A DNA stretch of 56,410 nt from the IMG/VR virus record IMGVR_UViG_3300009446_000002, positions 1-56,410 of that record; one strand, written 5' to 3'. Positions within the stretch are counted from its first letter, which is position 1, and each line of letters opens with the position of its first letter. This document shows, one piece after another, positions 23,567 through 47,982 of this stretch. The notes beneath the pieces are model-generated. The model saw nothing but the letters and a program-made list of their open reading frames with translations. It was not told where the DNA came from and made no database searches. The position numbers and the translations under genes were made by a program. This stretch comes from a virus.

Positions 23567-25024
23567 TTGATAACGGCGAAAAGCAAAGCGGAAATACTTA
23601 ATAATTTAAGTAAGAGGGCAGAAAAAAGCAGAAAATCTTTTCATCATTTTTTTAAGGAATTCTTCGAAGTTGTATCTACAGAAAAACTTTCAGAAAATTG
23701 GTCCCAGAAAGTTCTTTGCGACGAACTACAGCTTTTAGGCGAATCTATTAGAGATCGTAAAGAGAAGCCGCACGACCTTTCTATAAATATTTCACCAGGA
23801 ACAGGAAAGTCTATTATTGCTTCGCAGCTTTTCCCTGTTTGGCTTTGGCTAATTGATCCGACGATAATTATTCTTTCTGGTTCTCATAACATAACCTTAG
23901 CTACAAAGAATTCAAGAAAGTCAAGGGACGTAATAGAGTCCGAAAAATTTTACTATTTATTCGGCGACGAAATAAAATTAAGGGACGACCAAAACACCGT
24001 TACACATTACGCGAACCAGAAGGGCGGCGAAAGAATAACTACTGCAGTAAGTTCTAAGCCTATTGGAGTTCACGCGCACATTCATATTATAGACGACCCA
24101 ATAGACCCAGAAGGCGTTCTTTCGGAAGCTGTTTTAAGTAAGACAAATAGATTCTTTCCAGACGTATTGGATACCAGGAAAGTAAACGAATTAATTACGC
24201 CCTTAGTTTTGATAATGCAGCGCCTACACGAAAACGACCCTTCTGCTTATATCGCTAAAAAATATCCTAATGTAAAGCAGTTAGTTTTTCCAGTTACTAC
24301 AGACTATAAAGTCGTTCCTTCGAAATACAAGCGGCGATATATTGGCGGATATTTTGACCCAATTAGATTGGGTAAAAAAGCGATAGACGCGAAGAAAAAG
24401 AAAATGTCTTCTATTCAATTTACGGCGCAGTTTGGGCAGTCGGCAACTGCACCAGAAGGAAATATTCTTAAGAAGAAAATGGTCCACGTAATTAACAGGG
24501 CGGACGTTCCTGTCCAGGTCTTCGGAAAAGAATCGGGATTCTTCGGAGACATGGCATATACTAAGAAAAAGAAGAACGACCCTTCTGGACTTTTAGAAGT
24601 AAAGCTATACAAAGACATTCTTTACATTTGGGATTTTAAGAAGTTCTGGGAAGAATTCGACGAAGCAATAGAAGAAGCCCGAAGCTGGCTAATAGAAAAA
24701 GACGAAGAAAAGTCTTCTTTCTATATTGAAAATAAGGCTTCTGGTTTGTCGATCGGTCAGCACTTAAGGACGACTTACAAAATGAATACTATAGACTATA
24801 CACACCCTGGCGGCGATAAGGAAGCGCTGCTTCGATTTATACTTAAGTATTTAGAGTCTGGGCGCGTAGTTTTCGTAAAAGGAAATTACTTAAGCGACTT
24901 CCTAAAAGTTCTTCTTTCATTCCCAAGGGTTTCACACGATGAAGAAGTAGATTGCCTTATTATGGCAGTCTTTACCTGTATAATTGAATTCGAAGGAGCA
25001 GGGCGCGAAGCTAAGGCGAGTTAG
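23567..25024 (+). CDS. terL: Terminase large subunit
   Basis: Walker-A-like SPGTGKS, Walker-B-like HIHIIDDPIDP, LIMQRLHENDP, and a C-terminal nuclease-like FYIENKASG...DEEVDCL. TTG start. Confidence 0.85.
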   Translation: MITAKSKAEILNNLSKRAEKSRKSFHHFFKEFFEVVSTEKLSENWSQKVLCDELQLLGESIRDRKEKPHDLSINISPGTGKSIIASQLFPVWLWLIDPTIIILSGSHNITLATKNSRKSRDVIESEKFYYLFGDEIKLRDDQNTVTHYANQKGGERITTAVSSKPIGVHAHIHIIDDPIDPEGVLSEAVLSKTNRFFPDVLDTRKVNELITPLVLIMQRLHENDPSAYIAKKYPNVKQLVFPVTTDYKVVPSKYKRRYIGGYFDPIRLGKKAIDAKKKKMSSIQFTAQFGQSATAPEGNILKKKMVHVINRADVPVQVFGKESGFFGDMAYTKKKKNDPSGLLEVKLYKDILYIWDFKKFWEEFDEAIEEARSWLIEKDEEKSSFYIENKASGLSIGQHLRTTYKMNTIDYTHPGGDKEALLRFILKYLESGRVVFVKGNYLSDFLKVLLSFPRVSHDEEVDCLIMAVFTCIIEFEGAGREAKAS

Positions 25025-25064: not shown

Positions 25065-26024
25065 ATGAAAACTTTAATTACTATAATTGTCGCTACTGTT
25101 TTAGGGCTTTCTGCAATGCCAGGCGACACAGACCAAAGAAGGAAAAAATATCGAATAGAGCAGGATATTAATAAACTTCCTTTCACTTACAAAAATATGA
25201 TTTACAATATAGACGCCGCCGTAGAAGGTGGAGCCTATATTTTTTCCGACGAAGCCTTAGCTGCTTTTTCTTCTACTTCGTGCGAATCTTCCTGCCACGT
25301 TAAAGGAAATCATTTAGCACCTAAAGGAATACAAGCAGGAACAGGAACTTACACAGACGAAAATGGAGTAAGACGAAGGGCAGAATACTTTCCTAAAGAA
25401 TTTATAGTAGATGCACCTAAAATAAATTCGCCGCAGGTAGAAAACAGCGTTTACAGAAAAAGAGTTTTACACGACTGTATTACAGATTTAACAGGGCAGG
25501 CTTCCGAGCAGTTCGGATTTTTTGCGCACGACCTGGACTGGACTTCTGTTCGAAATAATCCAGTATATAAAAATTATATGGCTATCATATTTGGCGACGA
25601 CGAAGTAACTGCTTTAAGGATAACTATTCTTTTAGTGACTTTTGAAGAATCCGTAGTTTCCAGAAATCAACCTTTTCAGCTTTGGGCGAACGGTAAAGAA
25701 ATGGATAAAAATTTCTACGACTGGCTGGACTTATTCGAAGCAAACTGCGAAAGCTGCCACAACGGAAAAGACTTAGGCGGCGAAGGTCTTATTATGGGAA
25801 AAGTAGTAGCTAAGACTGGAACAGATTTAAGCTTCCTTAGAAGTAAAGAAGTCGCTGTAAGATCAGTTTATAATAACGACGCTTTTGATAAATACGGCTG
25901 GACTGGTTCTTATTCTTCCCTTTGGGCTTTTTATAAAAAGCATTTACAAAACGAAGAAATCTATTTATCTGTAATTGAACGAAGAAGGCTTTACGCAGGA
26001 ATTAAAAAATACTTAAACGATTAA
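25065..26024 (+). CDS. Exported dihaem cytochrome-c-peroxidase (CCP/MauG)-like protein, divergent
   Basis: Signal peptide. IFSDEALAAFSSTSCESSCH (CxxxCH) and LFEANCESCHNGKD (CxxCH) sit at CCP-like spacing. The linker ITILLVTFEESVVSRNQPF resembles CCP i..AiaaFErtl....spfD. Confidence 0.6.
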   Translation: MKTLITIIVATVLGLSAMPGDTDQRRKKYRIEQDINKLPFTYKNMIYNIDAAVEGGAYIFSDEALAAFSSTSCESSCHVKGNHLAPKGIQAGTGTYTDENGVRRRAEYFPKEFIVDAPKINSPQVENSVYRKRVLHDCITDLTGQASEQFGFFAHDLDWTSVRNNPVYKNYMAIIFGDDEVTALRITILLVTFEESVVSRNQPFQLWANGKEMDKNFYDWLDLFEANCESCHNGKDLGGEGLIMGKVVAKTGTDLSFLRSKEVAVRSVYNNDAFDKYGWTGSYSSLWAFYKKHLQNEEIYLSVIERRRLYAGIKKYLND

Positions 26025-26033
26025 ATAAAAAAT

Positions 26034-26720
26034 ATGTCACGAACAAAAGCAAAATTAGCAGACATGGCTTTAGAGTTCTACACAGAACTTTATAAGTCAT
26101 CTAACGAACTGGGGTCTTTTACTGCAGCAAACGAAACAGAATCTTTAATTCGAAGATTTTTTAATGACGCACCTTTTTCAGTAAGTGCGGAAATTCAAAA
26201 AGTAAAAGACGGAACTAAGAAAAATTCCGTAACAATGGAAGCGGCTAACTCTAAAATAGTTCCTACTAATCTTAGAGGAAATAAAGTAGAATACGAATCT
26301 ACAGACTTAACGGAAAAGGATTTTTTAGCCAGCGCGGCACGACTTTCGGGCGCGAATCGTGCTGCGGATAACGAACACCACTACGAAAAAGACGCGCACC
26401 TTAAAACATTCCAGAACCAAGGCGTAAGAACATTAGGGCAGGAAGATTTAGAAGAAGTAGAAGAATTAAAGGAAATCGAAGAACCAAACGTAGAGATAAC
26501 AGAAGAAGAACTGGAAAAACAAAAGCTTTTAGTTGCGCTTAACGATATGGAAGAACCAGAAATTCTTAAGCACTTTAAAAACTATAAAGCTGTAGTTCAA
26601 TACGCAAAGCAAAACTTCGAAGTAGAAATCGGAAAGAAAGCAGAAGGCGGCTTAGAAATGTTTAAAGAATCAGTAAGGGCGCAGCTATTAAAGCTTCAAA
26701 ATGGAGAAGAAGAAGAATAG
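26034..26720 (+). CDS. Hypothetical acidic protein
   Basis: 228-aa ORF. No motif recognised. Confidence 0.55.
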   Translation: MSRTKAKLADMALEFYTELYKSSNELGSFTAANETESLIRRFFNDAPFSVSAEIQKVKDGTKKNSVTMEAANSKIVPTNLRGNKVEYESTDLTEKDFLASAARLSGANRAADNEHHYEKDAHLKTFQNQGVRTLGQEDLEEVEELKEIEEPNVEITEEELEKQKLLVALNDMEEPEILKHFKNYKAVVQYAKQNFEVEIGKKAEGGLEMFKESVRAQLLKLQNGEEEE

Positions 26721-27627
26721 CAGAATAGTAGCAAAGGTCCAGGACCCGAAGACAGGAGAAATATTTCGAAAACTACTTCTTCCTGCTTCGGCCGCAGATA
26801 TAAGTTTCGAAAAGCGAGAAGAACTGTCTGGACACGCTGCCAGAATAAACAACTACTTAGTTAGTGTATTTAAGAAAAGAGAAAAGGAAGCGCGAAAAAT
26901 GTCTAAGCGCGAAGGAAAAGAAATAAAAGCCGAAGACCTTCCCTTATCACTTTATAAGCCTAAGTATTTAAAAATGGTTAGGGAAGCGATTTTCGCTTAT
27001 TTCGAAGTCCAGAACGATAAGATAAACTGGACTAAGAAAGTTCCTTCTGGCGATATGGAAGAACATTTAGATAAGTTTCGAAAATGGCAAAACGGAAAGC
27101 TTACTATTTCAATTCTGGGGTTATACGAATATCTTTTTACAGTTATTTTTTCTTACGAACCAATAGCAAAGGAAGACGGAAAGAACTTAGAATTCGAAGT
27201 AAACGGAACGACTTACGTTATTCCCTGTTTTATAGTAGACGAAGTTTTAAACAAAAAGAAGAACCCAGACTTAACGGTCCAGGAAAACGTAGAAGTTTTC
27301 GTAGTAGAGGACTATTACAATAAAGCAATAAAAGGAAGGAACGACGAAGAAGACTATAAGCAGGCGACAGGGCAAAGTATAAAAGGCTACAAAGTAAAGG
27401 CTGCGCTTTCCTACAAAAAGAACCTTAAGAAGATAGCTATTTTTTGCAGGAAGAAAGGCGAAGAATTACCAGACGACTATATAGCTTTTAATAAATTCGT
27501 AGACGATCGAATAAAGGAACTGGCTTCTATATCAATGCAGGATGCTTTAAACGCGCTTTTTTTTTTGCGGAATACCAGCGAAATCTTTCGGAAAATCCAG
27601 ACTGTAAATTCTACTTTACGCAAGTAA
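26701..27627 (+). CDS. Hypothetical protein (zero-frame product of a probable frameshift gene)
   Basis: 308-aa ORF. Contains a T10 run at 27557-27566, 20 codons before its stop. Confidence 0.6.
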   Translation: MEKKKNSRIVAKVQDPKTGEIFRKLLLPASAADISFEKREELSGHAARINNYLVSVFKKREKEARKMSKREGKEIKAEDLPLSLYKPKYLKMVREAIFAYFEVQNDKINWTKKVPSGDMEEHLDKFRKWQNGKLTISILGLYEYLFTVIFSYEPIAKEDGKNLEFEVNGTTYVIPCFIVDEVLNKKKNPDLTVQENVEVFVVEDYYNKAIKGRNDEEDYKQATGQSIKGYKVKAALSYKKNLKKIAIFCRKKGEELPDDYIAFNKFVDDRIKELASISMQDALNALFFLRNTSEIFRKIQTVNSTLRK

Positions 27628-27869
27628 AGCCAGAACCCAGACCAAAAGAAAAGGGCGACGAATATAAAAATAGAGTAGAAAGACTTAAGAAGATCAATGA
27701 AAAAATAAATTCCAGAATAGGACATAAGGGACTATATAGAAGACTTATAAACGGTAAGTATTTTTCCAGGTCTTCTTCTGAAAAGTCAGAACTTAGCTTA
27801 GTAAAAAAAGCTAACTACGAAGAAGCTATCCAGTTAATATCTATAGAAAACGGTTCACAATATTTATAA
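27495..27869 (+). CDS. Start-codon-less -1-frame ORF (124 codons), probable C-terminal extension of the 26701 gene
   Basis: I translated it codon by codon. There is no stop from 27495 to TAA 27867-27869 and no ATG, GTG or TTG. It is the only open frame across the otherwise ORF-free gap 27628-27887. Its composition looks protein-like. Confidence 0.5.
   Translation: MRRRSNKGTGFYINAGCFKRAFFFAEYQRNLSENPDCKFYFTQVKPEPRPKEKGDEYKNRVERLKKINEKINSRIGHKGLYRRLINGKYFSRSSSEKSELSLVKKANYEEAIQLISIENGSQYL
27557..27566 (+). promoter_or_regulatory. T10 slippery homopolymer (candidate -1 frameshift or transcriptional-slippage site)
   Basis: Read as CTT TTT TTT TTG in the zero frame, which contains U UUU UUU and U UUU UUG heptamers. 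Confidence 0.5.
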
Positions 27870-27887
27870 AAATAATAATCAAAAAAA

Positions 27888-28371: not shown

Positions 28372-29151
28372 ATGAAAAAATGTAAGTCTTTAGATTTTAC
28401 GATAAAGCACCTACTTAAGTTTCTAAAAGAAAGCGTTAAGTATTTTCCTACGCCAGAAGGAAATAAAAAGGAAGTAGCCTGTAAGACTATTAATTCTTTC
28501 GTTATGATAGACGGACGAAAAAAAATAGAACTTTCTAACTTCGGAATAGACTTAAAAAAAGCTGCTAATAAGACTTACAGCCTGCTTCCAAAAGCAGGAA
28601 AAGACAGATTCCCTGCAGCTATAGCGAACGTAAGACCACAGGGAAGACTTTCTGGTCTTTTTGGAAGTAATGGTAAAGACTGCAGAACGATCGAATTAAT
28701 GGTAGTCGATGCGATAATAACGGACTGCGATAACTGCGGCTACTGTGGAAGTAGAAACGACTTCGAAATTCATTGCGATACTTCCGAACTTCTTAAACAT
28801 TGGCTTAATTATTTGTCGCAGATTTGCTGCGCTATTCCGTGGAAACGAAATAAGGAAACAGGTTACAAAGAATATACTACGGAAGAATGGGAATGGGTTT
28901 CTAAGCCTATGCTTAATAAATTAAAATCCGAAGGAATCATAGATGGCTACGACTTAGATAAAACCTTAACAGGAAAGCTGCAGCAGTCTTTAGATAAAAA
29001 TAACCTAAGCGCTGCTGCTACAGATTGGACAGACGGGAAAAAGTATTACGGGCGCTATTTGGAAATTACATTCTGCGAAAAACTTAAATGTATAGAAAGA
29101 GAATTCGAAGTTTCAGAAACAAAAAAGACACTCATTAGCGAATGCTGTTAG
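28372..29151 (+). CDS. Hypothetical Cys-rich protein
   Basis: 259 aa with a DCDNCGYCGS...HCD cluster. Confidence 0.55.
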   Translation: MKKCKSLDFTIKHLLKFLKESVKYFPTPEGNKKEVACKTINSFVMIDGRKKIELSNFGIDLKKAANKTYSLLPKAGKDRFPAAIANVRPQGRLSGLFGSNGKDCRTIELMVVDAIITDCDNCGYCGSRNDFEIHCDTSELLKHWLNYLSQICCAIPWKRNKETGYKEYTTEEWEWVSKPMLNKLKSEGIIDGYDLDKTLTGKLQQSLDKNNLSAAATDWTDGKKYYGRYLEITFCEKLKCIEREFEVSETKKTLISECC

Positions 29152-29726
29152 AACTAATAAATAAAGCAATAGAAGAAAAACTGGAAATTTTTCTTAAAAA
29201 GGTAGTCGAAGAAATTCGCGAACAGATCAAATTACAGGGACACGAATTAACAGGAAGCCTTTCTAATTCTGTTCGTTATGAAATAAAGAAATTTCCTTCT
29301 ATAGTCCAGGGGCTTATTTTTATGGCAGATTATGGAACTTATGTAGACGCTGGTGTAGGTGCTTCGCGAATTCCTTTTTCTGGTACTGCTGCACCTGGCC
29401 AGGGACAGAAAGGAAAAACTTCTAAATATATCCAAGGCTTACAGGCTTTCTGGATGCTTAAGAAAAACCTTACAGAAAAGGAAGCGCTTTCTGCAGCTTT
29501 CGCTACAGCTAAGAAGCACAAAAAGGAAGGAATGCCAACAGCGAATTCTAAGAAGTTTTCTTTTGCGCAGAATAATAAGAGAACAGGGTTTCTGGACGAT
29601 GCTATAGATAACTTAACAGAAGAATTAGAAGTTTTAAATAATGATATTGGAAAAGAATTAAGTTTAGCTATTACGAATGTAATTTCGCGACGCGTTTTAG
29701 AATTCGAAAGAACTAATATTATTTAA
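29142..29726 (+). CDS. HK97-gp10-like head-tail/tail-completion protein (tentative)
   Basis: GHELTGSLSNSVRYEI...LIFMADYGTYVDAGVG resembles the gp10-family dTG.L..Si...Ya.yvE.G pattern. Confidence 0.4.
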   Translation: MLLELINKAIEEKLEIFLKKVVEEIREQIKLQGHELTGSLSNSVRYEIKKFPSIVQGLIFMADYGTYVDAGVGASRIPFSGTAAPGQGQKGKTSKYIQGLQAFWMLKKNLTEKEALSAAFATAKKHKKEGMPTANSKKFSFAQNNKRTGFLDDAIDNLTEELEVLNNDIGKELSLAITNVISRRVLEFERTNII

Positions 29727-30097
29727 TGCAATGGAAGCCAATTATAGAAACTTACGGCGCCTACTCTATTTCTTCGAATGGTGTAGCAAGATCAGAACTG
29801 CGACAGGGAATAAATTCTAACGGTAAAAAGTTTACTGTTCGACAGAAGTATTTAAAACCTTATATAGTAAGTTCTAATTATTATATGGTAGCGCTTAGGA
29901 TAAACGGGCAGACTGTTCGAAGATATATTCATAGATTAGTAGCTATAGAACACGTTTTAAACCCAGACCCAGAAACTTATAAATATGTAGACCATATTAA
30001 CGGAAAAAAAAGAGATAACAGGGCAGAAAATCTGCGCTGGTGTACACAAAAGCAAAATTTAAAATTCGCACGAAATGGCAAAGCAAAGAAGAAATAA
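29726..30097 (+). CDS. HNH homing endonuclease (NUMOD4-like N-terminus)
   Basis: WKPI...YSISSNGVARS and HRLVAIEHVLNP...VDHINGKKRDNRAENLRWCTQKQN are the classic HNH_3 pattern. Confidence 0.9.
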   Translation: MQWKPIIETYGAYSISSNGVARSELRQGINSNGKKFTVRQKYLKPYIVSSNYYMVALRINGQTVRRYIHRLVAIEHVLNPDPETYKYVDHINGKKRDNRAENLRWCTQKQNLKFARNGKAKKK

Positions 30098-30677
30098 AAA
30101 AAGTGAAGTAGTAGTTTACGAAACAGACATAGAGGACTTAAAATTCGATACCCAGAATGTAAATAAGCATACTTCGCGCGGAATGGAATTACTGGGAAAA
30201 TCTATCGAAGAATTTGGCGCTGGAAGATCAGTATTAACTTCTTCGGACGGCGTTTTAATCGCAGGAAATGGAGTCGTAGAAAAAGCGAAAGAAAGCGGCT
30301 ACACGAAAGTAATAACTATCGAAACGGACGGAACTACTTTAGTAAACGTAAAACGAACAGACATTAAGGCGAAGTCTAAGAAAGCTAAGAACTTAGCTTT
30401 AGCCGACAATAGAGTAGCGCAAACGAATTTATTTTTCGACTACGATAAAATAAAAGAACTATATTCCTATAATGACTTAGCGAAATTCGACCTACAGAAC
30501 TTATTCGGAGCCGAAGGCGGTGGAACTTCTGCGCCTTCTTCTGGTTCTTCTACAGGGTCTACAGATACTTCGGGCGAACTTTGTATTTTGATAATATGCG
30601 ATTCCCTAAAAGACCAGGAAGAAAGTTATAGAGATTTAAAAAAAGCTGGCTACGAAGTAGAGATTTACGCCAGGTAA
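30075..30677 (+). CDS. ParB N-terminal-domain-like protein
   Basis: DIEDLKFDTQNVNKHT...SIEEFGAGRSVLTSSDGVLIAGNGVVEKAKESGY...LALADNR fits a ParB/Srx-like fold pattern. Confidence 0.6.
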   Translation: MAKQRRNKKSEVVVYETDIEDLKFDTQNVNKHTSRGMELLGKSIEEFGAGRSVLTSSDGVLIAGNGVVEKAKESGYTKVITIETDGTTLVNVKRTDIKAKSKKAKNLALADNRVAQTNLFFDYDKIKELYSYNDLAKFDLQNLFGAEGGGTSAPSSGSSTGSTDTSGELCILIICDSLKDQEESYRDLKKAGYEVEIYAR

Positions 30678-30707
30678 AGAATTCTTTTTTGTTTTGTTCA
30701 ACGAATG

Positions 30708-30741
30708 ACCCAGTTAAAACGCTTGTTTTGCTGGGTTTTTT
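30708..30741 (+). terminator. Rho-independent terminator
   Basis: ACCCAG..AAAAC pairs with GTTTT..CTGGGT in a bulged stem, followed by T6. Confidence 0.55.
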
Positions 30742-30794
30742 ACGTTATTCGGCTTATAATGTTGTTATTTGCTACATTATTACATATGTTTACA

Positions 30795-30802
30795 TATATT
30801 TG
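30795..30802 (+). promoter_or_regulatory. -7 promoter box TATATTTG with an upstream TTTG at 30768-30771, 6 nt before GTG 30808
   Basis: Exact TAnnTTTG. A possible -33 TTTG lies 23 nt upstream. Confidence 0.35.
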
Positions 30803-30807
30803 TAAAA

Positions 30808-31032
30808 GTGAAGCATAGAATTATATATTCAATAAACAAAAAAAGAAAAGTCTTTTACTTTATTCGAAAGCCAATTCCAGAAAGCCTTTACTGCGAAGAA
30901 CTATCTACGATTTTAGTAGCTTCTAAAAAGTACAAATATTTCTTAGATCAGCTTAATAGAAAAAACCTTTTTTTAAGCTTCTTAAAAAGAACTAAGACTA
31001 TAACCGAAAAGGATTATTTAAACCTATTATAA
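30808..31032 (+). CDS. Hypothetical basic protein (GTG start; low confidence)
   Basis: Same frame as track ORF 30769 (TTG start). GTG 30808 sits at the spacing from the -7 box seen at other promoters here. Confidence 0.3.
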   Translation: MKHRIIYSINKKRKVFYFIRKPIPESLYCEELSTILVASKKYKYFLDQLNRKNLFLSFLKRTKTITEKDYLNLL

Positions 31033-31050
31033 AACACATAAATTTTAAAG

Positions 31051-31269
31051 ATGATAATTAAGAGATACGAAAAAGAATACGAAGATTTTTTAGCTGAATG
31101 CGAAGCTATGGGAACGCTGGCTTCCGACGGAAAAAAAAGTAATGATAATATCATAGTTTTCGAAGATCGCGACGAAACAGTAAAAGCGCTTCCTGTAGTA
31201 GCTAAATATTTTAGTATGTTTAGCGTAGACATACCTTTAGGAAGAATCACATTAGTAAGCAGTAAATAA
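31051..31269 (+). CDS. Hypothetical protein
   Basis: 72-aa ORF. Confidence 0.45.
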   Translation: MIIKRYEKEYEDFLAECEAMGTLASDGKKSNDNIIVFEDRDETVKALPVVAKYFSMFSVDIPLGRITLVSSK

Positions 31270-31278
31270 ATAATATAA

Positions 31279-31306
31279 GCCAGGTGCTTAGGCTCCTGGT
31301 ATTTTA
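31279..31306 (+). terminator. Weak hairpin plus T-rich tail
   Basis: CCAGG.GC pairs with GC.CCTGG, followed by TATTTT. Confidence 0.3.
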
Positions 31307-31324
31307 AACCTAAAATAAATATTT

Positions 31325-31504
31325 ATGAAAACTATTAAAGACGCTGTTATCCATTATTTGAAATTAAAAGGGTTTTTGAATCCAACAGAAAAAGAAATAG
31401 CCGAAAACCACAAATTTTTTAATAAAAGATTTAAGGGAAATTTCGAAAAAGCTAAAAAGTATGTAAATAATTTCGAATATAATCTTTGCCCTAATCAATT
31501 CTAA
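31325..31504 (+). CDS. Hypothetical 59-aa protein (below the track cut-off)
   Basis: Translated by eye: MKTIKDAVIHYLKLKGF...NLCPNQF. Fills an otherwise empty gap. Confidence 0.35.
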   Translation: MKTIKDAVIHYLKLKGFLNPTEKEIAENHKFFNKRFKGNFEKAKKYVNNFEYNLCPNQF

Positions 31505-31530
31505 TTTTTTAACCTAAAATAATACACGAA

Positions 31531-31956
31531 ATGAATTACGTATTTTTAAACGGGAACATAGGAAAGGAACCCAGAACAAAGACCTTCGATAATGGCGGAA
31601 GTAAGACCCGTCTTTCTTTAGCTACCAGCAGAAGCTACAAAGATAAGTCTGGCGAATGGCAGCAAGAAACTCAATGGCATTCAGTAGACGGCTACGGATA
31701 TATTTCTAAGACTATGCAGAAGCTACAGAAAGGCGACAGCGCGACTATATTCGGGCGCCTGGTTTATGAGTCTTACGAAACCAACGAAGGGCAGAAGAAG
31801 ACCGTCGCAATAGTAAACGCTACTAAGGTAGTAATTCACAAAAAAGGAAATTACGTAGAACCTTCTACGATCGGAACGGGTTCTGCAGAAACAGACTTCG
31901 GAATGCCAGTAGAAAACGCCCCTGCAAATCCTTCACCAGAAAGCGACTTCGAATAA
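31531..31956 (+). CDS. ssb: Single-stranded DNA-binding protein
   Basis: NYVFLNGNIGKEPRTKTF...SLATSRSYKDKSGEWQQETQWHSV...LQKGDSATIFGRLVYESYE is the canonical OB-fold SSB pattern. Gly/Pro-rich tail ending in an acidic DFE. Confidence 0.85.
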   Translation: MNYVFLNGNIGKEPRTKTFDNGGSKTRLSLATSRSYKDKSGEWQQETQWHSVDGYGYISKTMQKLQKGDSATIFGRLVYESYETNEGQKKTVAIVNATKVVIHKKGNYVEPSTIGTGSAETDFGMPVENAPANPSPESDFE

Positions 31957-32162
31957 TGGATATTTCCTACATAATCGACGAATTAGAAGTTTCTGTAACG
32001 ATCAAAAAAGAAGGCTTAATAGCTACCTTAGAAATTCCTACAGAAGAACTTACGCCGCCTACCGCAAAAAATATAGAACATTGGATAGCAGACAACGAAC
32101 CAGAATTAGAATTTTTAGAGCCGCGACATTATAGCTGCGGACACGACGAAACGCTTAATTAA
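31956..32162 (+). CDS. Hypothetical protein
   Basis: TAATG overlap with the upstream stop. 68 aa. Confidence 0.45.
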   Translation: MDISYIIDELEVSVTIKKEGLIATLEIPTEELTPPTAKNIEHWIADNEPELEFLEPRHYSCGHDETLN

Positions 32163-32184
32163 TAAAACCTTTAATAATTTAAAA

Positions 32185-33312
32185 ATGTCAGATACAAACT
32201 TAAAAGAAAAAGAAGTTATAAAGCCCGAAGTAAAATTCGAAACGGATATAGAAGCTAACTACGAAACTTACAAAGCGAAGCAGCTTAAAGTTTTAGAAGA
32301 ATTTCCATTTATAGAAGCGAAGAATTCTGCTTCTTACGACTTAGCTAAGAAAGCGCGAACAGCTTTAAGAACTGCCAGAACTTCTATTCAGAATGAAGAA
32401 AAGGATATTATTTCTAATATTACTTCTTACGTAAAAGGAAAGAAATTAGGAATACGCGCTTTAGCCAATAAGCTTATAGATATTACAAAGGCAGCAGAAC
32501 AGAAGCAGCAGGATTCCGTTACTGAATACGAAGCGCTTTTAGAGCAAAAAAAGCAGGCAAAAATTCGCGAAGAAGAACTTCGTAAGAAGGAACATTTAGA
32601 CAAAATTTCTAATTTCGAAAGTTACCACGAAGAAAGAGTCGAATTAATGACTTTAGAGACAGCGAAGGTGTTTTCCGAAAATATGAAAGACGATATTACG
32701 AAGCTGGAAGAACACGACTTCGAAGAATTTAATTTGCAGGCAGAATCCGCAATAGGAATAATAAAGGAAAAGTATAAGAAGAAATATACGGACTTAGTAA
32801 AGGCGGACGAAGCAGAAAAGGAAGCGAAAAGAGTAGCGGAAGAAGCTAAAAGATTAGCTGCAGAAAAAGAAAAGCACGACGCGGAAAGGGCGGCTTTTGA
32901 AGCAGAAAAAGAAGCGTTCGAAAAAGAGAAGAAAGAAAAGGAAGAAGCGGAAGCTGCGAAGATCGCAGAAGAACAAGCGAAAAAATTAAAAGAAGCCCAG
33001 AACAATAGACCTGCAGGCGAAGACCTTTCTAAAAGGATTCAGACGCCTACGACTTCTTCTGGTCCTGCAGTTTCTACTTCTACAATAGCAGCACCTAAGA
33101 AGATTATAGTAGAGCCGAAGCAGGAAGCCTTAGACCAGGTAGCCTTAAAAGATAAGAAGATTATTTCTTCCTATTTGACTTCTGCTTTACCAGAAGTAAG
33201 CTTCCCAGAAGGTCTTTCTGTCCAGGGAAGGGCTATCTGCGACGACTTAGAAAAAGACTTACTGGACTTTTCTTTGATATTAAGAACGAAGTTTAATAAA
33301 TACTTTGAATAA
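32185..33312 (+). CDS. Coiled-coil Ala/Glu/Lys-rich protein
   Basis: 375 aa with a long EAEKEAKRVAEEAKRLAAEKEK-type segment. Confidence 0.55.
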   Translation: MSDTNLKEKEVIKPEVKFETDIEANYETYKAKQLKVLEEFPFIEAKNSASYDLAKKARTALRTARTSIQNEEKDIISNITSYVKGKKLGIRALANKLIDITKAAEQKQQDSVTEYEALLEQKKQAKIREEELRKKEHLDKISNFESYHEERVELMTLETAKVFSENMKDDITKLEEHDFEEFNLQAESAIGIIKEKYKKKYTDLVKADEAEKEAKRVAEEAKRLAAEKEKHDAERAAFEAEKEAFEKEKKEKEEAEAAKIAEEQAKKLKEAQNNRPAGEDLSKRIQTPTTSSGPAVSTSTIAAPKKIIVEPKQEALDQVALKDKKIISSYLTSALPEVSFPEGLSVQGRAICDDLEKDLLDFSLILRTKFNKYFE

Positions 33313-33529
33313 AATACAGGTAATAGAACTATGCTACAGGTTCTTTATTCAAGCTACACAAAGAAGGGAAGGCGAAGAAAACAAATGCTTTATAATTGTA
33401 CCAGAAAAATTCTACGACATTATTTATAATAAGCCAGTCGCCTTCCCTTACTTAATTTTTAACGGCGTTACAGTCACCTTAATAAGATTAAAAACAAATT
33501 ATTTTTTCGCAGTATGGATAAAGGAATAA
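33305..33529 (+). CDS. Hypothetical protein (TTG start; uncertain)
   Basis: No in-frame ATG. Confidence 0.3.
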   Translation: MNKIQVIELCYRFFIQATQRREGEENKCFIIVPEKFYDIIYNKPVAFPYLIFNGVTVTLIRLKTNYFFAVWIKE

Positions 33530-33729
33530 ACTTAGGAGAAGACGAACCTAACTGCTTAGCAGTTTACGAAGAATACAAAGCTAAGCAGAAGTCTAAGGGA
33601 AGGAAGATCGAAGATTATATAATTTTTAAAGGCGTCTACTTAGCTTTTCAAAATGTTAAGGCTGGAAAGAAAAGCGGATTTATAATTCCAGAACCAAAAT
33701 TCGAACAAACAAAACTTAATTTAGAATGA
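33514..33729 (+). CDS. Hypothetical protein
   Basis: 71-aa ORF. Confidence 0.45.
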   Translation: MDKGINLGEDEPNCLAVYEEYKAKQKSKGRKIEDYIIFKGVYLAFQNVKAGKKSGFIIPEPKFEQTKLNLE

Positions 33730-34064
33730 GATCAATAAAAGAAACAGTAGGAAGCGAAATTTCAGAAGGCTTTATAGAATGGATAAAGAACGCCAGCAGC
33801 GAAGTTCTTTTAGAAATGGAAGAAGTACAAGAATTTACCAGGCAGATAGATATGTCCAGGAACAGAATTAGTATTTTAGAAAAAGCCAGAAATCACAAAG
33901 TTTATCTTCTACTAATGGATTACCGTTCTGTAGGAGTTAGACAAATTAGAAATAATCCTAAAAAGTGCTGCGAATTACCAGCTTACGTTCCTACAAAGTT
34001 CTGCGACAGCGAATTAAATAATACTGCCTGTAAGAATTGCGGCTATCAGTTCTATTCTAACTAA
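33726..34064 (+). CDS. Hypothetical protein with C-terminal Cys-rich (zinc-ribbon-like) tail
   Basis: ATGA overlap with the upstream stop. Contains KKCCELP...FCDSELNNTACKNCGY. Confidence 0.5.
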   Translation: MRSIKETVGSEISEGFIEWIKNASSEVLLEMEEVQEFTRQIDMSRNRISILEKARNHKVYLLLMDYRSVGVRQIRNNPKKCCELPAYVPTKFCDSELNNTACKNCGYQFYSN

Positions 34065-34083
34065 TATATTAAAACGATCAACT

Positions 34084-34167
34084 ATGTACGAATTTTTATT
34101 TAAGCTTACTGTAGCTGCTATATGTGCTTACTGTGTCTATTTTATCTATAAAGAAGAAGCATGGTAA
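34084..34167 (+). CDS. 27-aa hydrophobic peptide (speculative)
   Basis: MYEFLFKLTVAAICAYCVYFIYKEEAW, translated by eye. Overlaps the next start codon. Confidence 0.25.
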   Translation: MYEFLFKLTVAAICAYCVYFIYKEEAW

Positions 34168-34553
34168 AGGGATTCGAAGAAATAACTGCGCCACTAACGG
34201 AAAAGGAAAAGAATATCTTCCTTCCTATGGTTCGCAGAATTTTAGTTCATAGGATAGGCGAAGACTACGCTATAACGAATTTTGGAATTCGGGACATTTG
34301 CTTAGCGAACGAAGTTAAAATTTCTTCTGCCCAGGTTCGTAAGGTCGTTAATATTTTGCGCCGCCTGGGTCTTCCTACAGGAATTCTTATAGCTGGTCGT
34401 GCTGGTTATTGGGTAGAGACAGACGAAAAAAAAATTAATAACTGGCTGGAAGGAATGGAAGAACGCGTTTCTATAATGGCTTCTTCTATTAGTGCAGTCC
34501 GAAGACAGAAGTTAGAATTAAAAAATAATGTTCAATTAAAACTTTTTCAATGA
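34161..34553 (+). CDS. Hypothetical protein, possibly winged-helix DNA-binding
   Basis: ISSAQVRKVVNILRRLGLPTGILIAGRAGYWVETDE resembles a wHTH recognition helix plus wing. Confidence 0.5.
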   Translation: MVKGFEEITAPLTEKEKNIFLPMVRRILVHRIGEDYAITNFGIRDICLANEVKISSAQVRKVVNILRRLGLPTGILIAGRAGYWVETDEKKINNWLEGMEERVSIMASSISAVRRQKLELKNNVQLKLFQ

Positions 34554-34678
34554 AAGAAGACCAAAAAAAAGCAGTTATAAATTTCTTACAATCTATAGGC
34601 TGTCTTATTTTATTCGTACTATTTATTTCTTTAATCTTAAAAAGCTGCGGAACCTTAATAGGAACTTTTGGCTTCTAA
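34550..34678 (+). CDS. 42-aa single-TM peptide (speculative)
   Basis: MKEDQKKAVINFLQSIGCLILFVLFISLILKSCGTLIGTFGF. ATGA overlap with the upstream stop. Confidence 0.3.
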   Translation: MKEDQKKAVINFLQSIGCLILFVLFISLILKSCGTLIGTFGF

Positions 34679-34687
34679 AAAATACTT

Positions 34688-35059
34688 ATGAAAAATTTGA
34701 TTACACTACTTTTTATTTTTAATTCGATCGCCTCTTATTCTCAATTCCATGAAAGCAGAAGTATTCTTAATCCAGGTTATTATTCTGCCTCTACCTACTG
34801 CGGCTGTGGAAATTTTACCTACGATAAAAAGACCTGGGCGGAAAGACATAAAATAATAGATTCTAAGAATTATGTAGAGAATCCGAAATATAAAATAAGT
34901 GAAGCCCAACAGTTTTATTATTTAAAAGCAGTATATATTTTATTCGAACAGAACGTAAGGCTTCCTAAAACTGTTTCTGAATTGGAGCAAAAAATTCAAA
35001 GCGGCGCTTATATTATCTATGGCATTTTTCCATATAAGAAAAAGGTAGGAAGGGTTTAA
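34688..35059 (+). CDS. Exported hypothetical protein (signal peptide, Gln at +1)
   Basis: N-terminus MKNLITLLFIFNSIASYS|Q. Confidence 0.55.
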   Translation: MKNLITLLFIFNSIASYSQFHESRSILNPGYYSASTYCGCGNFTYDKKTWAERHKIIDSKNYVENPKYKISEAQQFYYLKAVYILFEQNVRLPKTVSELEQKIQSGAYIIYGIFPYKKKVGRV

Positions 35060-35060
35060 A

Positions 35061-35234
35061 ATGAAGAAGAAGAAAACACCAATAACAGGAAGCCATAATC
35101 TTTCCTACGAAGTAGCATTTAAGACCTGGCAGCGCGAAGGAAAGAAAGGTCTTCTTCGCTTAATGAATTCGCCGACTGAATGGATAGTAGATAAAATTAC
35201 TTTAAGATTTATAAACGAAAAATTAAATAAATGA
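35061..35234 (+). CDS. Hypothetical 57-aa protein
   Basis: Translated by eye. Its stop overlaps the next start (ATGA). Confidence 0.35.
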   Translation: MKKKKTPITGSHNLSYEVAFKTWQREGKKGLLRLMNSPTEWIVDKITLRFINEKLNK

Positions 35235-35425
35235 AATTACAGGATAGATTAAAAGCAGCAGATAAGCTTATTTTAGAATTTCAGTCTATGCGACTTCTAC
35301 AGAAGAAGTACTTTAATGAAGGTCGGGAATATAAAGTCTTAAACCAATCTAAGGCGCAGGAGAAAAAAGTCGATCAAATGATAGGCGAATACAATAACAA
35401 CGAAATACAGGGGCGGCTATGGTAG
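35231..35425 (+). CDS. Hypothetical protein
   Basis: 64-aa ORF. Confidence 0.45.
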   Translation: MKLQDRLKAADKLILEFQSMRLLQKKYFNEGREYKVLNQSKAQEKKVDQMIGEYNNNEIQGRLW

Positions 35426-35658
35426 ACAAAGAAGTAAAAGTATTAAGTAAGACTAAGCCTACTTTGATATCTGCAGGAATGCGCTTTCAGTTCGTTAACA
35501 AAAAGGGAAGGCTGGATTATTTTAAAGTCTTAGAAGTAGATGAAAAGAACGACGCTATTAAAATTCTTCATTCTTCAAACGAAGAATTTATTAAGCAGCT
35601 TTCCAGGGTGCAGGCTCAAATAGAAAAAAGCAATTTGCTAGAATATAAAACTGTTTAG
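35419..35658 (+). CDS. Hypothetical protein
   Basis: 79-aa ORF. Confidence 0.45.
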   Translation: MVDKEVKVLSKTKPTLISAGMRFQFVNKKGRLDYFKVLEVDEKNDAIKILHSSNEEFIKQLSRVQAQIEKSNLLEYKTV

Positions 35659-35660
35659 TT

Positions 35661-35831
35661 ATGCTTTATTTATTTGTCTTAGAATATTTAGGAAAAAAGA
35701 TAGTTCGAAGATTCAGTCTTAATTCGGACCTGCAGGCTTTAGAATATGGAATAATAATAGAGAACGCTACAGGCTTCGAAGTAGTTTATATTACGGATAA
35801 ATATTTAAAAGAAATTTTAAGAAAGCAATGA
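35661..35831 (+). CDS. Hypothetical 56-aa protein
   Basis: Translated by eye. ATGA overlap with the next gene. Confidence 0.35.
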   Translation: MLYLFVLEYLGKKIVRRFSLNSDLQALEYGIIIENATGFEVVYITDKYLKEILRKQ

Positions 35832-36466: not shown

Positions 36467-36476
36467 AAGAAAGAGA

Positions 36477-36674
36477 ATGCCACGAAGTAGAATTTACGAA
36501 TTCAGACAATTTAAAGAAGAACAACTTTCTGCCAGGAGGTTTTATTCAAACCTTAAGAAGCTTTGTAAGGAAGAAGGCTTAGAGTATGAAAATGTTTACT
36601 ACGCAGTAGGAAGAAAGCCAGAAGCTTTCTGGACAGATCAAAACGTAGAAGTAGAAAGATTCGAAGTACTATAG
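36477..36674 (+). CDS. Hypothetical protein
   Basis: ATG 36477 is preferred over 36363, which overlaps the upstream gene by about 100 nt. Confidence 0.4.
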   Translation: MPRSRIYEFRQFKEEQLSARRFYSNLKKLCKEEGLEYENVYYAVGRKPEAFWTDQNVEVERFEVL

Positions 36675-36769
36675 ATGATTCAAATAGCAAAAAGATTAGA
36701 AGTCTTATAACCGATCGAACAGCCAGAAGGCGAAAAGCTTATTACTTATTTAAAAATGAAAAAATAGAA

Positions 36770-36958: not shown

Positions 36959-36959
36959 T

Positions 36960-38001: not shown

Positions 38002-38002
38002 A

Positions 38003-38299: not shown

Positions 38300-38316
38300 A
38301 CAACTAAAAAATCAAT

Positions 38317-38592: not shown

Positions 38593-38595
38593 AAA

Positions 38596-38955: not shown

Positions 38956-38980
38956 AGAAGAACAAAAAAACTTAAATTAA

Positions 38981-44349: not shown

Positions 44350-47300
44350 ATGACGGAAAAGATTAGTTTAATAATCAATATAGAAGGCTCCGAAGATTCT
44401 ATTCGGGACGTAGCAAGATTAGAAGACGCGCTTTCTGGTATAGGTCAACAAATGAAAGACCTTAAAAAAGATTCTACTGGTACTTCTACCAGCTTATCCG
44501 ATGTAAAAAAAGAACTTTTAAGCCTTAAGAATTCTGGGAAGGAAACTTCCGACGAATACAAAGAACTTTCTGCACAGTCTAAAACCCTTACTGATCGACT
44601 GGAAGGAAATAAGAAAGCTGTGGAAGATTTAAAAGTAAGCCAGCGACTTCTTCGGGAAGAAAAGAAGGAAGTAAACAAAGAACTAAATAAGTCTATTAGG
44701 GACTACCAGAAATTCGGCGATTCAATTCCAGACGATTCTATCGAAGGATTAGCCAGGGCTTATTCCGATATGAGAAAAGAACTACGCCTGGTCCCTAAGC
44801 AAATTAGAGACTTAGCAGACCAGTTCGGGAAGAATGAAGTAGCGCTAAAAAGATTAGACCCAGAATTAGAAAGCGCAGTTCGTTCTTATAATGAATTACA
44901 GAAGAAAGCAAAAGATACGAAACAGGAAGTTTTAGACTTCGACCAGGGAATAAACGATTTTACTTCTAATATAGGAAATTACGCTTCCGCTTTAGACGGC
45001 TTAAACCTGGGCGGAATACTCGGAAAGATTGGCCAGGGTGCTTTAGGCTTTGCTTCTGGCGGCGTAGGCGGCGGACTTGGCGCGCTGGGTCTTCCTTCTG
45101 TTTCAGAACTTAAGGGAATAGCTGGGGTTTTAGGTCCTGCAGGAATTGTCGGAACTGCGATAGCTGCTACAGCTTTAGCTTCGGCGAATTATGCGATAGA
45201 CGTTACCAGGGAATATGAACAGCTTTTCGCGACGGTCGGAGCTATTACAGGATTAGTAGGCGAAGACTTGCAGAACGTAACTGCACGAACGAAAACACTT
45301 TCAGAAGTATTTGGACAGGAATTCGACAGAAGCTTAGAAATAGTAAACGCCACGCAGAAAGGATTCGGCGAAGATTTTAATACTACGATCGACGAAATAA
45401 CAGAAGGGCTTATTTCTTTGGGCGACTCTGAATTAGCCAGGGATAACTTCTTAGATTCCCTAAGGGAATATCCGAAGCTAATAGCTGACGCTGGTTTTTC
45501 ATTAAGAGAATTTATACAGCTTAACGTAATAGCTGCACAGGAAGGAACCTATTCGGATAAGGTAGTAGATTCTGTTAAGGAAGCAAACCTTTCACTTAAG
45601 GAACTTACGAAGACACAGTTCGACGCTTTGGAATCTACTTTAGGAAACGACTTCGCTGCAGATATAGAAAAGAGAATAAGAGAAGGAACGACTTCTTCGA
45701 AAGACGCTATTTTAGAAATAGGCGAAGCATTAGAAGAAGGCGGCGCAGACCTGCAGGACTACGCTATAATTTCAGCAGATGTTTTTAAAGGTGCAGGCGA
45801 AGATTCTGGTGGGTTTAAAGAAGTATATGAAATCGTAAAAGAATCTATAGTAGCGGCAAATGAAGAAATAGGCGAAAGTCAAAACGCCTACGAAAGAAGA
45901 CTTCGAACAAGCATAGAGGCGACCCAGGACTTAAACGAAGAACAGACCCTTTTAGCTTCACAACTTGCAGGACTTGGAACTTCATTTGATTCTATAGGAA
46001 CTAAGGCGAAAGCTTTCGGAACTTCATTACTTAACGACGTTCTTCTTAATTTTAGAGCGCTTAAAAAAGAGTTCGAAGACGGAAACGGATTAGAAGGCGT
46101 AGGAAATTTCTTAGCAAATAGTTTCGAATTAATTATACCCGACAGCGTAGAAGAATATTTCGGATTCGCAGAAGAAGGCGCAGGCGGAAGGAAAGCTGGA
46201 AGGGAAACACTAGCTGAAATTATTGCAGCCGACGCGGAAGCCCTGCAGGAAGTTAACGAAGGAATAGCAAAAGACAACGAAGCCAGAAGTAAGGCGGAAG
46301 AATTAGAAATAGAAAGGAAAAGGAAACAGGCTGCAGCTACCAGGGCGCTTAATAAATCCATAAGGGAAGAAGCACAAAGTAACGCAGCGGAAATTAAGAA
46401 GTCGGAAGCAGAAAAAAGGAAAGTAGAAAAGGACGCTGCAGCAGCAGAAAAGAAATTCGAGCAGGACAAAGAAAAGGCTGCAGCAAATATTTCTAAATTA
46501 GAAAATGAAATAGGCGACGGACAGGCGAAGCTTTTAGAAAAGAATCTTACGGACCTGGAAGAATACGAAAGACAAAAAGCGGCTTTAGTCGGCGATTCAG
46601 AAACAGAAATAGGAAAACTGTTAGGAGACGAAACACAGATAGCGCAGCAGACAGAACTTATAAAGCAGGCTTTAGACATACAGATCGCAGAACTAAAAAA
46701 GAAAAGAGAAGAAGCTTTAGATTCTGCAGCAGATAATACATTCCAGGAAGCGGAAGCTGCACTTAATAACGATCGGACTGCAGAAGAATTCGGCGCAATA
46801 ACAGATTTTAATAATGAGATAGGAACGGACGCTACAAACGCCGAAAGGATTACTGCAGAAAAAGAACTGTACGACGAACTTATAAGAATAGAGCAGGAAT
46901 ATTTAGAAAGGCGCGAACAACTAATAGAAAACGACCCTTCGTTAACGGACGAAGAAAGAATAGCTAAGCTTAAAGAGATAGCAGAAAGGGAACAGCAGAT
47001 CAACGAAGAAAAGAACCAAGTTTTAATAGACCAGGAAGAAAAGGCTGCTGCGGAACGTGCGCAGATTCAAGAAAGAAGCGCTGCAATTTTAGGAAGCGCT
47101 ATCGAAGGAATAGGAAGCGCTATAGGTTCTTTTATTGGTGACCAGGAAAAGGACGTAAAAGAATTTTACAAAGGTCTTATTAACGTAGCTATTCAAGCGT
47201 TAGAGCAGTTTCTTATAGCTTCTATTACAGCGCAGTCTTTAGCGCAGCCCGATTCCGTTGCTACATTTGGGGCAACTGCGGCGCCAAGAATTGCACTTCT

Positions 47301-47982
47301 TACAGGATTAGTAAAAGCTGCTTTCGGAATAGTTCGCGGCGCTATTGCACAATTCGAAGAAGGCGGAAACACAGACCCGAACAACTTAACACAGGCTAAA
47401 GACGCCTTCGGCTTAATGTGGCATATGAACAACGGCGGAAGAATTTCTTTTCCTGCAAAGTCTGGCGGACTTATACAGGGACCAGACCACAGTAACGGCG
47501 GCGTAAAGTTTAGAGTAAAAAAAGGCGGAAGAAGTTTTATAGGTGAAGCGCGCGGTAATGAGTTAATAATGAATGAAAGACAGCAGTCGGCTTTAGAAAG
47601 TATAGCTGGTAAAGATATTTACAAACGAATAGGAATTCCAGGGGCTTCTTCTGTGTCTCAAAATTTAGCTAACTATTACGGCGGAAGGTCTTCTGGAAGG
47701 TCTTCTGGGAATTACTTTCAATATGAAGCAGGCGGCTTTATTCCGCAGGTAGCTTCTGCAGCAGATTTTAGTTCTGCAATGCGCGGAAATATGAACTTAA
47801 GAATAAGCGAAGAAGATTCTGTTCGTAATGCCGAAATAATAGCGGAAGCTGTAGGGCAAAAACAAACAGAAGTTTTACAGCAAACGCGCGACGAAATGGT
47901 AGAACAGTTTACTACTGCTTTAGATTCAGTAAATAGATTACGCGAAAGAGAATCCGCAGCAAAGTCTTCCGCCGAAATATGA
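44350..47982 (+). CDS. Tail tape measure protein
   Basis: 1210 aa. Long coiled coils plus Gly-rich hydrophobic segments (GGVGGGLGALGLPS...). Followed by large tail genes. Confidence 0.8.
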   Translation: MTEKISLIINIEGSEDSIRDVARLEDALSGIGQQMKDLKKDSTGTSTSLSDVKKELLSLKNSGKETSDEYKELSAQSKTLTDRLEGNKKAVEDLKVSQRLLREEKKEVNKELNKSIRDYQKFGDSIPDDSIEGLARAYSDMRKELRLVPKQIRDLADQFGKNEVALKRLDPELESAVRSYNELQKKAKDTKQEVLDFDQGINDFTSNIGNYASALDGLNLGGILGKIGQGALGFASGGVGGGLGALGLPSVSELKGIAGVLGPAGIVGTAIAATALASANYAIDVTREYEQLFATVGAITGLVGEDLQNVTARTKTLSEVFGQEFDRSLEIVNATQKGFGEDFNTTIDEITEGLISLGDSELARDNFLDSLREYPKLIADAGFSLREFIQLNVIAAQEGTYSDKVVDSVKEANLSLKELTKTQFDALESTLGNDFAADIEKRIREGTTSSKDAILEIGEALEEGGADLQDYAIISADVFKGAGEDSGGFKEVYEIVKESIVAANEEIGESQNAYERRLRTSIEATQDLNEEQTLLASQLAGLGTSFDSIGTKAKAFGTSLLNDVLLNFRALKKEFEDGNGLEGVGNFLANSFELIIPDSVEEYFGFAEEGAGGRKAGRETLAEIIAADAEALQEVNEGIAKDNEARSKAEELEIERKRKQAAATRALNKSIREEAQSNAAEIKKSEAEKRKVEKDAAAAEKKFEQDKEKAAANISKLENEIGDGQAKLLEKNLTDLEEYERQKAALVGDSETEIGKLLGDETQIAQQTELIKQALDIQIAELKKKREEALDSAADNTFQEAEAALNNDRTAEEFGAITDFNNEIGTDATNAERITAEKELYDELIRIEQEYLERREQLIENDPSLTDEERIAKLKEIAEREQQINEEKNQVLIDQEEKAAAERAQIQERSAAILGSAIEGIGSAIGSFIGDQEKDVKEFYKGLINVAIQALEQFLIASITAQSLAQPDSVATFGATAAPRIALLTGLVKAAFGIVRGAIAQFEEGGNTDPNNLTQAKDAFGLMWHMNNGGRISFPAKSGGLIQGPDHSNGGVKFRVKKGGRSFIGEARGNELIMNERQQSALESIAGKDIYKRIGIPGASSVSQNLANYYGGRSSGRSSGNYFQYEAGGFIPQVASAADFSSAMRGNMNLRISEEDSVRNAEIIAEAVGQKQTEVLQQTRDEMVEQFTTALDSVNRLRERESAAKSSAEI

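Follow-up and report, generated by a model that had tools for sequence, protein, structure and literature searches.

IMG/VR virus record IMGVR_UViG_3300009446_000002 was analysed over its whole stretch of 56,410 nucleotides (nt), referred to below as the window. It carries an open reading frame (ORF) of 308 amino acids (aa) with a run of ten T's (T10) near its 3' end, where a second, start-less frame is open in the -1 register, and the possible joining of these two frames into one product by recoding at the run is the subject of this study. The elements of the locus are the following, in window coordinates.

26701..27627, plus strand: zero-frame ORF with a predicted short product of 308 aa, made up of an N-terminal domain and a 20-residue, non-conserved tail, LRNTSEIFRKIQTVNSTLRK; identical to protein P0001

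27557..27566, plus strand: T10 run, the candidate slip site; a homologous T9, T10 or T11 run lies at the same codon position in relatives

27567..27869, plus strand: C-terminal domain in the -1 frame, 100 codons and a TAA, corresponding to residues 290-389 of a predicted long product of 389 aa; no start codon

27492..27494, plus strand: TAA bounding the -1 frame on its upstream side, 21 codons ahead of the slip run

The ORF starts with ATG and ends with TAA at 27625-27627. Its run is bordered as C-T10-G (27556-27567) and is read CTT TTT TTT TTG in the zero frame, which continues for 19 sense codons past the TTG before it stops, and GCT TTT TTT TTT G in the -1 frame. Two heptamers, T TTT TTT (27558-27564) and T TTT TTG (27561-27567), are found at this site, both in zero-frame phase, and the run is the longest homopolymer of the window and its only T-run of at least 8 nt. 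Between the TAA at 27492-27494 and that at 27867-27869 the -1 frame displays 124 sense codons without any ATG, GTG or TTG; no ORF is listed for 27628-27887, and the next gene begins at 27888. A shift inside T10 would yield a 389-aa fusion reading ...NALFFFAEYQ... around the junction, and among the predicted tryptic peptides ELASISMQDALNALFFFAEYQR would mark the long form, as it covers the junction, and ELASISMQDALNALFFLR the short form. A sequence-only reading of this DNA had described the T10 run inside the 308-aa ORF, the start-less 124-codon frame, the gap in the ORF list and a fusion of about 389 aa, and all four descriptions were confirmed. A chance origin of the open -1 frame is unlikely, because off-frame open stretches inside the 16 long genes of the genome have a mean length of 11.5 codons, and a length of at least 100 occurs in only 1 of 1317. 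The sole other stretch of that length in the long genes, 125 codons at 12729-13103 inside ORF 11617-13800, is rich in Arg and has the composition of an apparent off-frame artefact.

A search with the fusion unveiled P0002 (363 aa, 40% identity), which spans 95% of it in a single frame, and P0003 (280 aa, 38% identity), which ends at the same place as the window ORF. Three contigs of P0002 read TGT CTT TTT TTT TTT CGG, that is, T11 and in frame, while the contig of P0003 reads GCA CTT TTT TTT TTG ACC, that is, T10, with the homologous C-terminal 100 residues in the -1 frame. The entire -1 segment of the window can be aligned with the C-terminal end of P0002 and also with the -1 frames of L004, L005, L006, L008, L009, L010, L012, L013 and L015. 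To judge from these alignments, it is a genuine C-terminal domain of the protein, in keeping with the earlier impression that the -1 frame looked like real protein. The ratio of non-synonymous to synonymous changes (pN/pS) was computed for 189 pairs of relatives, which share 70-97% of their nucleotides downstream of the run. Beyond the zero-frame stop it was 0.10 in the -1 frame and 1.06 in the zero frame, and in the overlap with the zero-frame tail 0.21 and 0.76, respectively; downstream pS amounted to 0.22-0.33, with the run still intact. By these ratios the -1 frame is under purifying selection and the zero-frame tail is not. A conserved, functional zero-frame tail was also considered and rejected, since the apparent motif GFLxRQSF only mirrors WFFxPPKF of the -1 frame and the tail has a pN/pS of 0.76-1.06. 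The C-terminal domain is nearly absent from protein databases, with 2 matches in 5.8 billion protein sequences, in line with expectation for a start-less frame.

The split extends through the whole family. A hidden Markov model (HMM) of the N-terminal domain, run against 1.84 billion representative proteins with hits accepted at E <= 1e-3, gave 199 matches (representative clusters). Among the 150 best, 137 lack the C-terminal domain and stop 3-82 residues (median 36) past an xFF[L/F/S] motif that occupies the homologous position; 5 carry this domain in frame, and 8 are of other kinds, mostly with VFFCL or VFFYL, motifs that would encode a T-run as well. The residue preceding FF nearly always has a codon option ending in T (D 34, A 21, L 15, R 11, I 10, etc.). 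Independently of the run, a DNA motif for the conserved upstream peptide KNLKKIxIxxRxxGExLP, which does not include the run, found two metagenome loci, L005 and L006, and in both the same codon carries T10 and the C-terminal domain follows in the -1 frame; the motif had no match in IMG/VR or GTDB genomes. Six distant truncated members (about 20-28% identity, GC content 38-50%) were followed to the DNA level, where L008 and L009 revealed T10 and L010, L012, L013 and L015 T9, with the C-terminal domain in the -1 frame in all six. Thus, every split lineage found via protein searches or the run-independent motif has the run, T9 in four and T10 in six, and the domain in the -1 frame. Taken together, the 12 lineages found without selecting for the run show T9 (4), T10 (6) or T11 (2), and none a shorter one. 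T11-fused genes are confined to two sister lineages, L001-3 and L119, the latter verified as fused in frame at the DNA level; the same check showed L120 to be fused without a run (CAC AAG TGG CTT CTT...), and three lineages, P0054, P0067 and P0137, encode the full-length protein without a slippery run.

A larger sample came from a scan of IMG/VR with the pattern GGNGARNNNYTNCC-N87-T9, which is biased to runs of at least 9 nt, though equally able to match longer, in-frame runs. It revealed 103 sites, 100 of them family members by the N-terminal HMM, representing 70 distinct loci. T9 in phase 2 was found at 97 of the 103 pattern sites, nearly all of them family members, and the C-terminal domain lies in the -1 frame in 100/100 members and in frame 0 or +1 in none. 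A group of 28 near-identical contigs from different samples displayed T9 throughout, although T10 also matched the search pattern. The boundaries of the shift can be drawn from 89 distinct sequences: a stop codon directly 5' of the run closes the -1 frame in 9 of them, and the zero-frame stop comes as near as 6 codons 3' of it. Because these flanking stops leave only a narrow window and the run is the sole element common to all 89 sequences, the shift is pinned to the run. Upstream of it, the -1 frame has no ATG in 87/89 sequences and no start codon of any kind in 78/89, and in 56/89 there is none upstream or within the first 30 codons after the run start. The split is kept down to about 20% amino-acid identity and over a GC content of 34-50%.

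The features that the sequence-only reading had named as telling are therefore present in the relatives: the T-run and the two-frame layout recur in 10 of 10 independent split lineages and in all 100 IMG/VR members, and no start codon is conserved in the downstream segment. Its caution that T11 would mean one plain ORF applies to the sister lineages L001-3 and L119 only, and the part that would have made the window an assembly error fell away. In our view the T11 lineages point to the full-length protein as the functional product and give no sign of such an error in the window. The phages carrying the gene form a large, widespread, uncultured family of tailed phages.

Structure prediction was in agreement with a single protein. 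AlphaFold2 modelled the 389-aa fusion from a 145-sequence alignment as one compact fold (mean predicted local distance difference test, pLDDT, 91; predicted template modelling score, pTM, 0.88), after an earlier model from 3 sequences had been poor (pLDDT 60). Helix 279-298 passes through the FFF junction (287-289), and residues 301-389 are modelled as packed helices with a block-mean pLDDT of 68-92. Because the helix continues across the junction and the helices of the -1 frame are packed in the model, the long form is predicted to be the complete fold. Foldseek detected no relative of the 145-sequence model in the PDB (best E = 1.2), and in BFVD only uncharacterised proteins of 226-280 aa from uncultured phages, which look like truncated calls of the same family; the match to GT of phage N15 in BFVD was not significant (E = 0.9, probability 0.41). 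Family members had no recurrent match in Pfam and PHROGs, profiles of the N-terminal and C-terminal domains found nothing meaningful among PDB sequences, and among 50,697 GenBank phages neither megablast nor tblastn, run with the region, the fusion and two distant members, detected a match. Two candidate identities were rejected. For a major capsid protein with an upstream scaffold, similar to T7 10A/10B, an HK97-fold match was missing, and a protease and a probable capsid gene are located at 3-5.7 kb; for a portal protein, suggested by the position after TerL, the model showed no portal-fold match.

How the two frames may be joined can be described as follows. Standard decoding would yield the 308-aa protein, an N-terminal domain with a meaningless tail of 20 residues, and a fraction of expression events would enter the -1 frame inside T10 and yield the 389-aa protein, its last 100 residues completing the fold. 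On a run of hybrid length, RNA polymerase would allow the nascent U-tract to realign on the template A-tract, one U would be added, and the U11 mRNAs would then be decoded normally as ...ALFFFAEYQ.... The identical protein would result if ribosomes slipped in tandem by -1 on U UUU UUU or U UUU UUG, a route that may contribute. That recoding of some kind is programmed at the T-run is, in our judgement, highly probable, and the suggestion of a programmed frameshift or transcriptional slippage, made from the sequence alone, now finds support in the family-wide split, the selection on the -1 frame and the single-fold model. We further hold, with moderate confidence, that the locus represents one gene of the morphogenesis block with programmed -1 recoding at a conserved poly-T run, mainly through RNA-polymerase slippage; considered on its own, this route is somewhat favoured as the main one. 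It is preferred because the runs are of hybrid length and no stimulatory structure accompanies them. Every run observed measures 9-11 nt, and minimum free energy (MFE) z-scores averaged -0.31 in the 70 nt downstream and +0.13 in the 70 nt upstream (n = 76), like the controls, in a model that leaves out pseudoknots; the downstream value of the window was -0.79. Bacterial RNA polymerase in vivo slips efficiently on 9 A or T, its RNA:DNA hybrid being 9-10 bp, and Thermus dnaX makes productive use of a 9-nt run (PMC5009743). The in-frame T11 sister lineages, which parallel the case of dnaX, also speak for this route. That two products are made from the gene, in which ratio, by the slip of which machine and for which role, are points that we infer from the sequence comparisons.

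The strongest competitor is purely translational -1 ribosomal frameshifting on U UUU UUU or U UUU UUG, the mRNA being a faithful U10 copy, which we consider rather unlikely as the whole explanation. The zero frame NNT TTT TTT TTR holds two X XXY YYZ heptamers, T TTT TTG is the shift site of P2 E/E', and the product would be identical to that of slippage. Moreover, low-level -1 frameshifting with simple signals instead of elaborate ones is common in phage morphogenesis genes (PMC5009743). For a ribosomal heptamer, however, 6-7 T's are enough, yet none of the run-bearing members examined has fewer than 9, structure is not enriched on either side of the run, and the phasing of the heptamers is inherited with the homologous position and is no independent evidence. 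Several points weigh against a polymerase-driven, two-product device. Ribosomes can legitimately shift on the heptamer U UUU UUG, and for low-level shifting no stimulator is required. Phe codons in the family genes are 65% TTT, and the conservation of the run could partly arise from the protein, with FFF in a helix, and from codon bias. The scan for T9 or longer cannot measure how frequently the run is absent. P0054, P0067 and P0137 encode the full-length protein without a run, and therefore these lineages at least can dispense with the short form; the split could represent a frameshift that is compensated and tolerated rather than a means of obtaining two useful products.

Compared with ribosomal frameshifting, phase variation at the DNA level is far less probable. 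It would assume mixed OFF (T9/T10) and ON (T10/T11) genomes, with the long protein made from ON genomes only, and it can refer to the hypermutability of 9-11 nt tracts and to the two lineages fixed at an in-frame T11, which indicate that one-nucleotide changes occur and are viable. Fused T-run lineages, however, number 2 against 110 DNA-verified split sites, and 2 against 137 truncated proteins among the representatives, and the tract was not polymorphic among the 28 near-identical contigs. In addition, purifying selection acts strongly on the C-terminal domain in OFF genomes, and therefore the domain must be regularly expressed from them; at low multiplicity of infection, a phage could not rely on other genomes for a core protein.

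A sequencing or assembly error hiding a true T11 and a single 389-aa ORF is extremely improbable. Homopolymers are error-prone, a homologous lineage has T11 in frame, and L004 is a low-coverage contig with "2x" in its name, but more than 100 contigs, which stem from many projects and assemblers, share the frame-breaking length, and not one of them is in frame. P0001 is present on three contigs, of which the one that was read, L007 from an independent Logan assembly (SRR5754723), also has T10. A systematic undercall by one base would throw the T11 lineages out of frame, and A9 runs at 8917-8925 and 34426-34434 of the window sit inside intact ORFs. Two separate genes, the C-terminal segment being translated independently by non-canonical initiation or coupling, or a decaying gene with a pseudogene remnant are hardly credible either: although the database proteins P0151 ("MQFFFERF...") and P0152 begin inside or just before the domain, the frame is start-less in the window and lacks starts in relatives in the proportions given above, the modelled helix is continuous across the junction, fused homologues exist, and decay is ruled out by the pN/pS of 0.10.

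The surroundings of the gene place the proposed recoding in a virion-assembly context. In the 70 distinct IMG/VR loci a recurring order was revealed, namely TerL (415-507 aa), gene A (115-224 aa), the recoded gene, gene D (about 245 aa, Cys-rich) and gene E (about 180 aa), and E is followed by a protein of 1000-1250 aa and one of about 520-560 aa. The corresponding genes of the window are listed below.

23567..25024, plus strand: terminase large subunit, the upstream anchor of the block (phrog_38, E = 2e-60)

26034..26720, plus strand: gene A, 228 aa, with an acidic C-terminal half; syntenic in relatives

28372..29151, plus strand: gene D, 259 aa, Cys-rich; the downstream syntenic gene

29142..29726, plus strand: gene E, 194 aa, putative Neck1/tail-completion protein (HK97 gp10-like); in its family, PF04883 is matched in 4/17 and phrog_5 in 5/17 members

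44350..47982, plus strand: tape-measure-like protein, 1210 aa; homologous to the +3 proteins of relatives (E = 1.3e-27), with weak tape-measure PHROG matches

The large protein of L010 carries PF10145 (PhageMin_Tail), and judging by this synteny the recoded gene belongs to a predicted neck/tail morphogenesis block. The tape-measure-like gene, the homologues of which directly follow E in relatives, lies about 14.6 kb beyond gene E in the window. The intervening stretch (29726-44350) contains accessory genes, including an HNH endonuclease (29726-30097), a ParB-like nuclease (30075-30677), a PAPS-reductase-like protein (42845-43696) and a tRNA-Met (43990-44064), and it looks like an insertion or rearrangement. 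Measured from the end of the recoded gene, the distance to the tape-measure-like gene is 16.5 kb, and in relatives D and E intervene; this supports the original suggestion that the gene is a new case of recoding, away from the position typical of tail chaperones. A major tail protein was not identified, and no other gene in the canonical chaperone position or with a frame split was found in the windows searched.

Several further features of the neighbourhood were observed. The ATG of the recoded gene lies 20 nt inside the end of gene A (overlap 26701-26720), with similar overlaps in L004 and L015, which suggests that the two genes may be translationally coupled. Gene D adjoins the recoded gene in many relatives, while a 158-aa gene stands between them in the window. 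In its family C125 and C258 are (nearly) invariant, and a CxGC and a C-terminal GCxxC motif are conserved, suggestive of a metal-binding or disulfide-bonded virion protein; no relative was found in Pfam, PHROGs or the PDB, and a profile of gene E against PDB sequences found nothing meaningful. Between the terminase and the assembly block, 25065-26024 encodes a homologue of di-haem cytochrome c peroxidase (CCP_MauG, E = 1.3e-11) with an N-terminal hydrophobic segment, an unusual cargo for a phage, which is also present in the independent contig L007. The ends of the window share a direct repeat of 123 bp (1-123 and 56288-56410), which shows the window to be a complete circular genome with a length of about 56.29 kb. 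One ORF, of about 1459 aa, leaves it at the right end (52474-56410) and continues at the left end to 566; all long genes lie on the plus strand.

Some of the related contigs are of interest in themselves. In L004, the phage relative (1-3887 vs 4261-14725) adjoins genes for a TonB-dependent receptor and Por_Secre_tail of the type IX secretion system (T9SS), which points to a prophage (or a chimeric contig) within a Bacteroidota genome; this may be a clue to the host of the group. L119 (1-966), the T11-fused family member, stems from a contig of 62.8 kb on which PTPS and GTP cyclohydrolase I are encoded as well, both members of the 7-deazaguanine/queuosine precursor pathway and thus a hint of possible DNA modification. 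Two matches to the recoded gene, L041 and L047, are located in a single 34-kb contig (IMGVR_UViG_3300020017_000145); they could represent a duplicated gene, a concatemeric assembly or terminal redundancy.

Among the known recoding systems closest to this one are the tail chaperones. Their short form binds the tape-measure protein, and their extension binds the tail tube protein. As in lambda gpG/gpGT and P2 E/E+E', a -1 shift near the 3' end of a morphogenesis gene adds a C-terminal extension to a shared N-terminus (PMC5009743). Also similar are the conservation across very divergent sequences and the location upstream of a tape-measure-like gene, with two products presumably made here as well. 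By analogy, the short and long forms may be a pair of assembly factors at a fixed ratio, like gpG and gpGT. There are, however, clear differences: the N-terminal part comprises 250-290 aa instead of about 100-150, the recoded gene neither adjoins the tape-measure gene nor lies between the major tail protein and the tape measure, the shift site is a homopolymer of 9-10 nt instead of a heptamer, and a few members are fused without a slip site. A sequence or fold match to the chaperones is also missing, which is a weak negative, as known chaperones are very diverse.

With regard to the signal, Thermus thermophilus dnaX (tau/gamma) is a close counterpart. It likewise has an A/T run of hybrid length in a coding sequence that gives rise to two products with a common N-terminus, and between related genes a single nucleotide swaps which product needs the shift, comparable to the T11 lineages described here (PMC5009743). 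In contrast, dnaX is a cellular replication gene, its long form is in frame in Thermus, which only the T11 lineages resemble, and mRNA heterogeneity was demonstrated for dnaX, while for the phage gene it is a prediction. In Shigella type III secretion genes such as spa13 and mxiE, slippage on an A/T run also joins overlapping frames and supplies a required C-terminal extension in a fraction of transcripts; for spa13, 25-30% of transcripts are slipped, and the extension comprises 112 aa (PMC5009743). Those are bacterial plasmid genes from unrelated families, confined to close relatives, whereas the phage site is kept at about 20% identity.

The capsid genes 10A/10B of T7/T3 and that of Lactobacillus phage A2 resemble the present gene in belonging to a structural module and in producing a minor, C-terminally extended isoform by a -1 shift (PMC5009743). 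They differ in being HK97-fold capsid proteins with ribosomal heptamers, a fold without a match here, and the C-terminal part of the present protein is integral to the modelled fold rather than an added decoration. Transposase orfA/orfB pairs of insertion sequence (IS) elements are similar in that overlapping frames are joined at a homopolymer by polymerase realignment or -1 frameshifting (PMC5009743). Here, instead, a phage gene without transposase domains is concerned, located in a virion-assembly block.

Known recoding in phage assembly genes consists mainly of heptamer-driven ribosomal frameshifts, in tail chaperones as well as in capsid extensions, and the gene described here differs from the known -1 isoform genes in family, in fold and in its signal, a homopolymer of hybrid length. 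To our knowledge, no family of double-stranded DNA (dsDNA) phages has RNA-polymerase slippage as a conserved feature. Gene callers stop at the run, and a core gene of these phages is therefore wrongly described by annotation pipelines. The natural variants, split with T9 or T10, fused with T11 and fused without a run, form a ready series for testing selection on the ratio of short to long product. As a more tentative idea, for which we see somewhat less than an even chance, slippage of the host RNA polymerase on T9/T10 may be obligatory for making a core neck/tail protein of an unseen fold; this would be the first deeply conserved case in dsDNA phages, and the gene may be a counterpart of gpG/gpGT.

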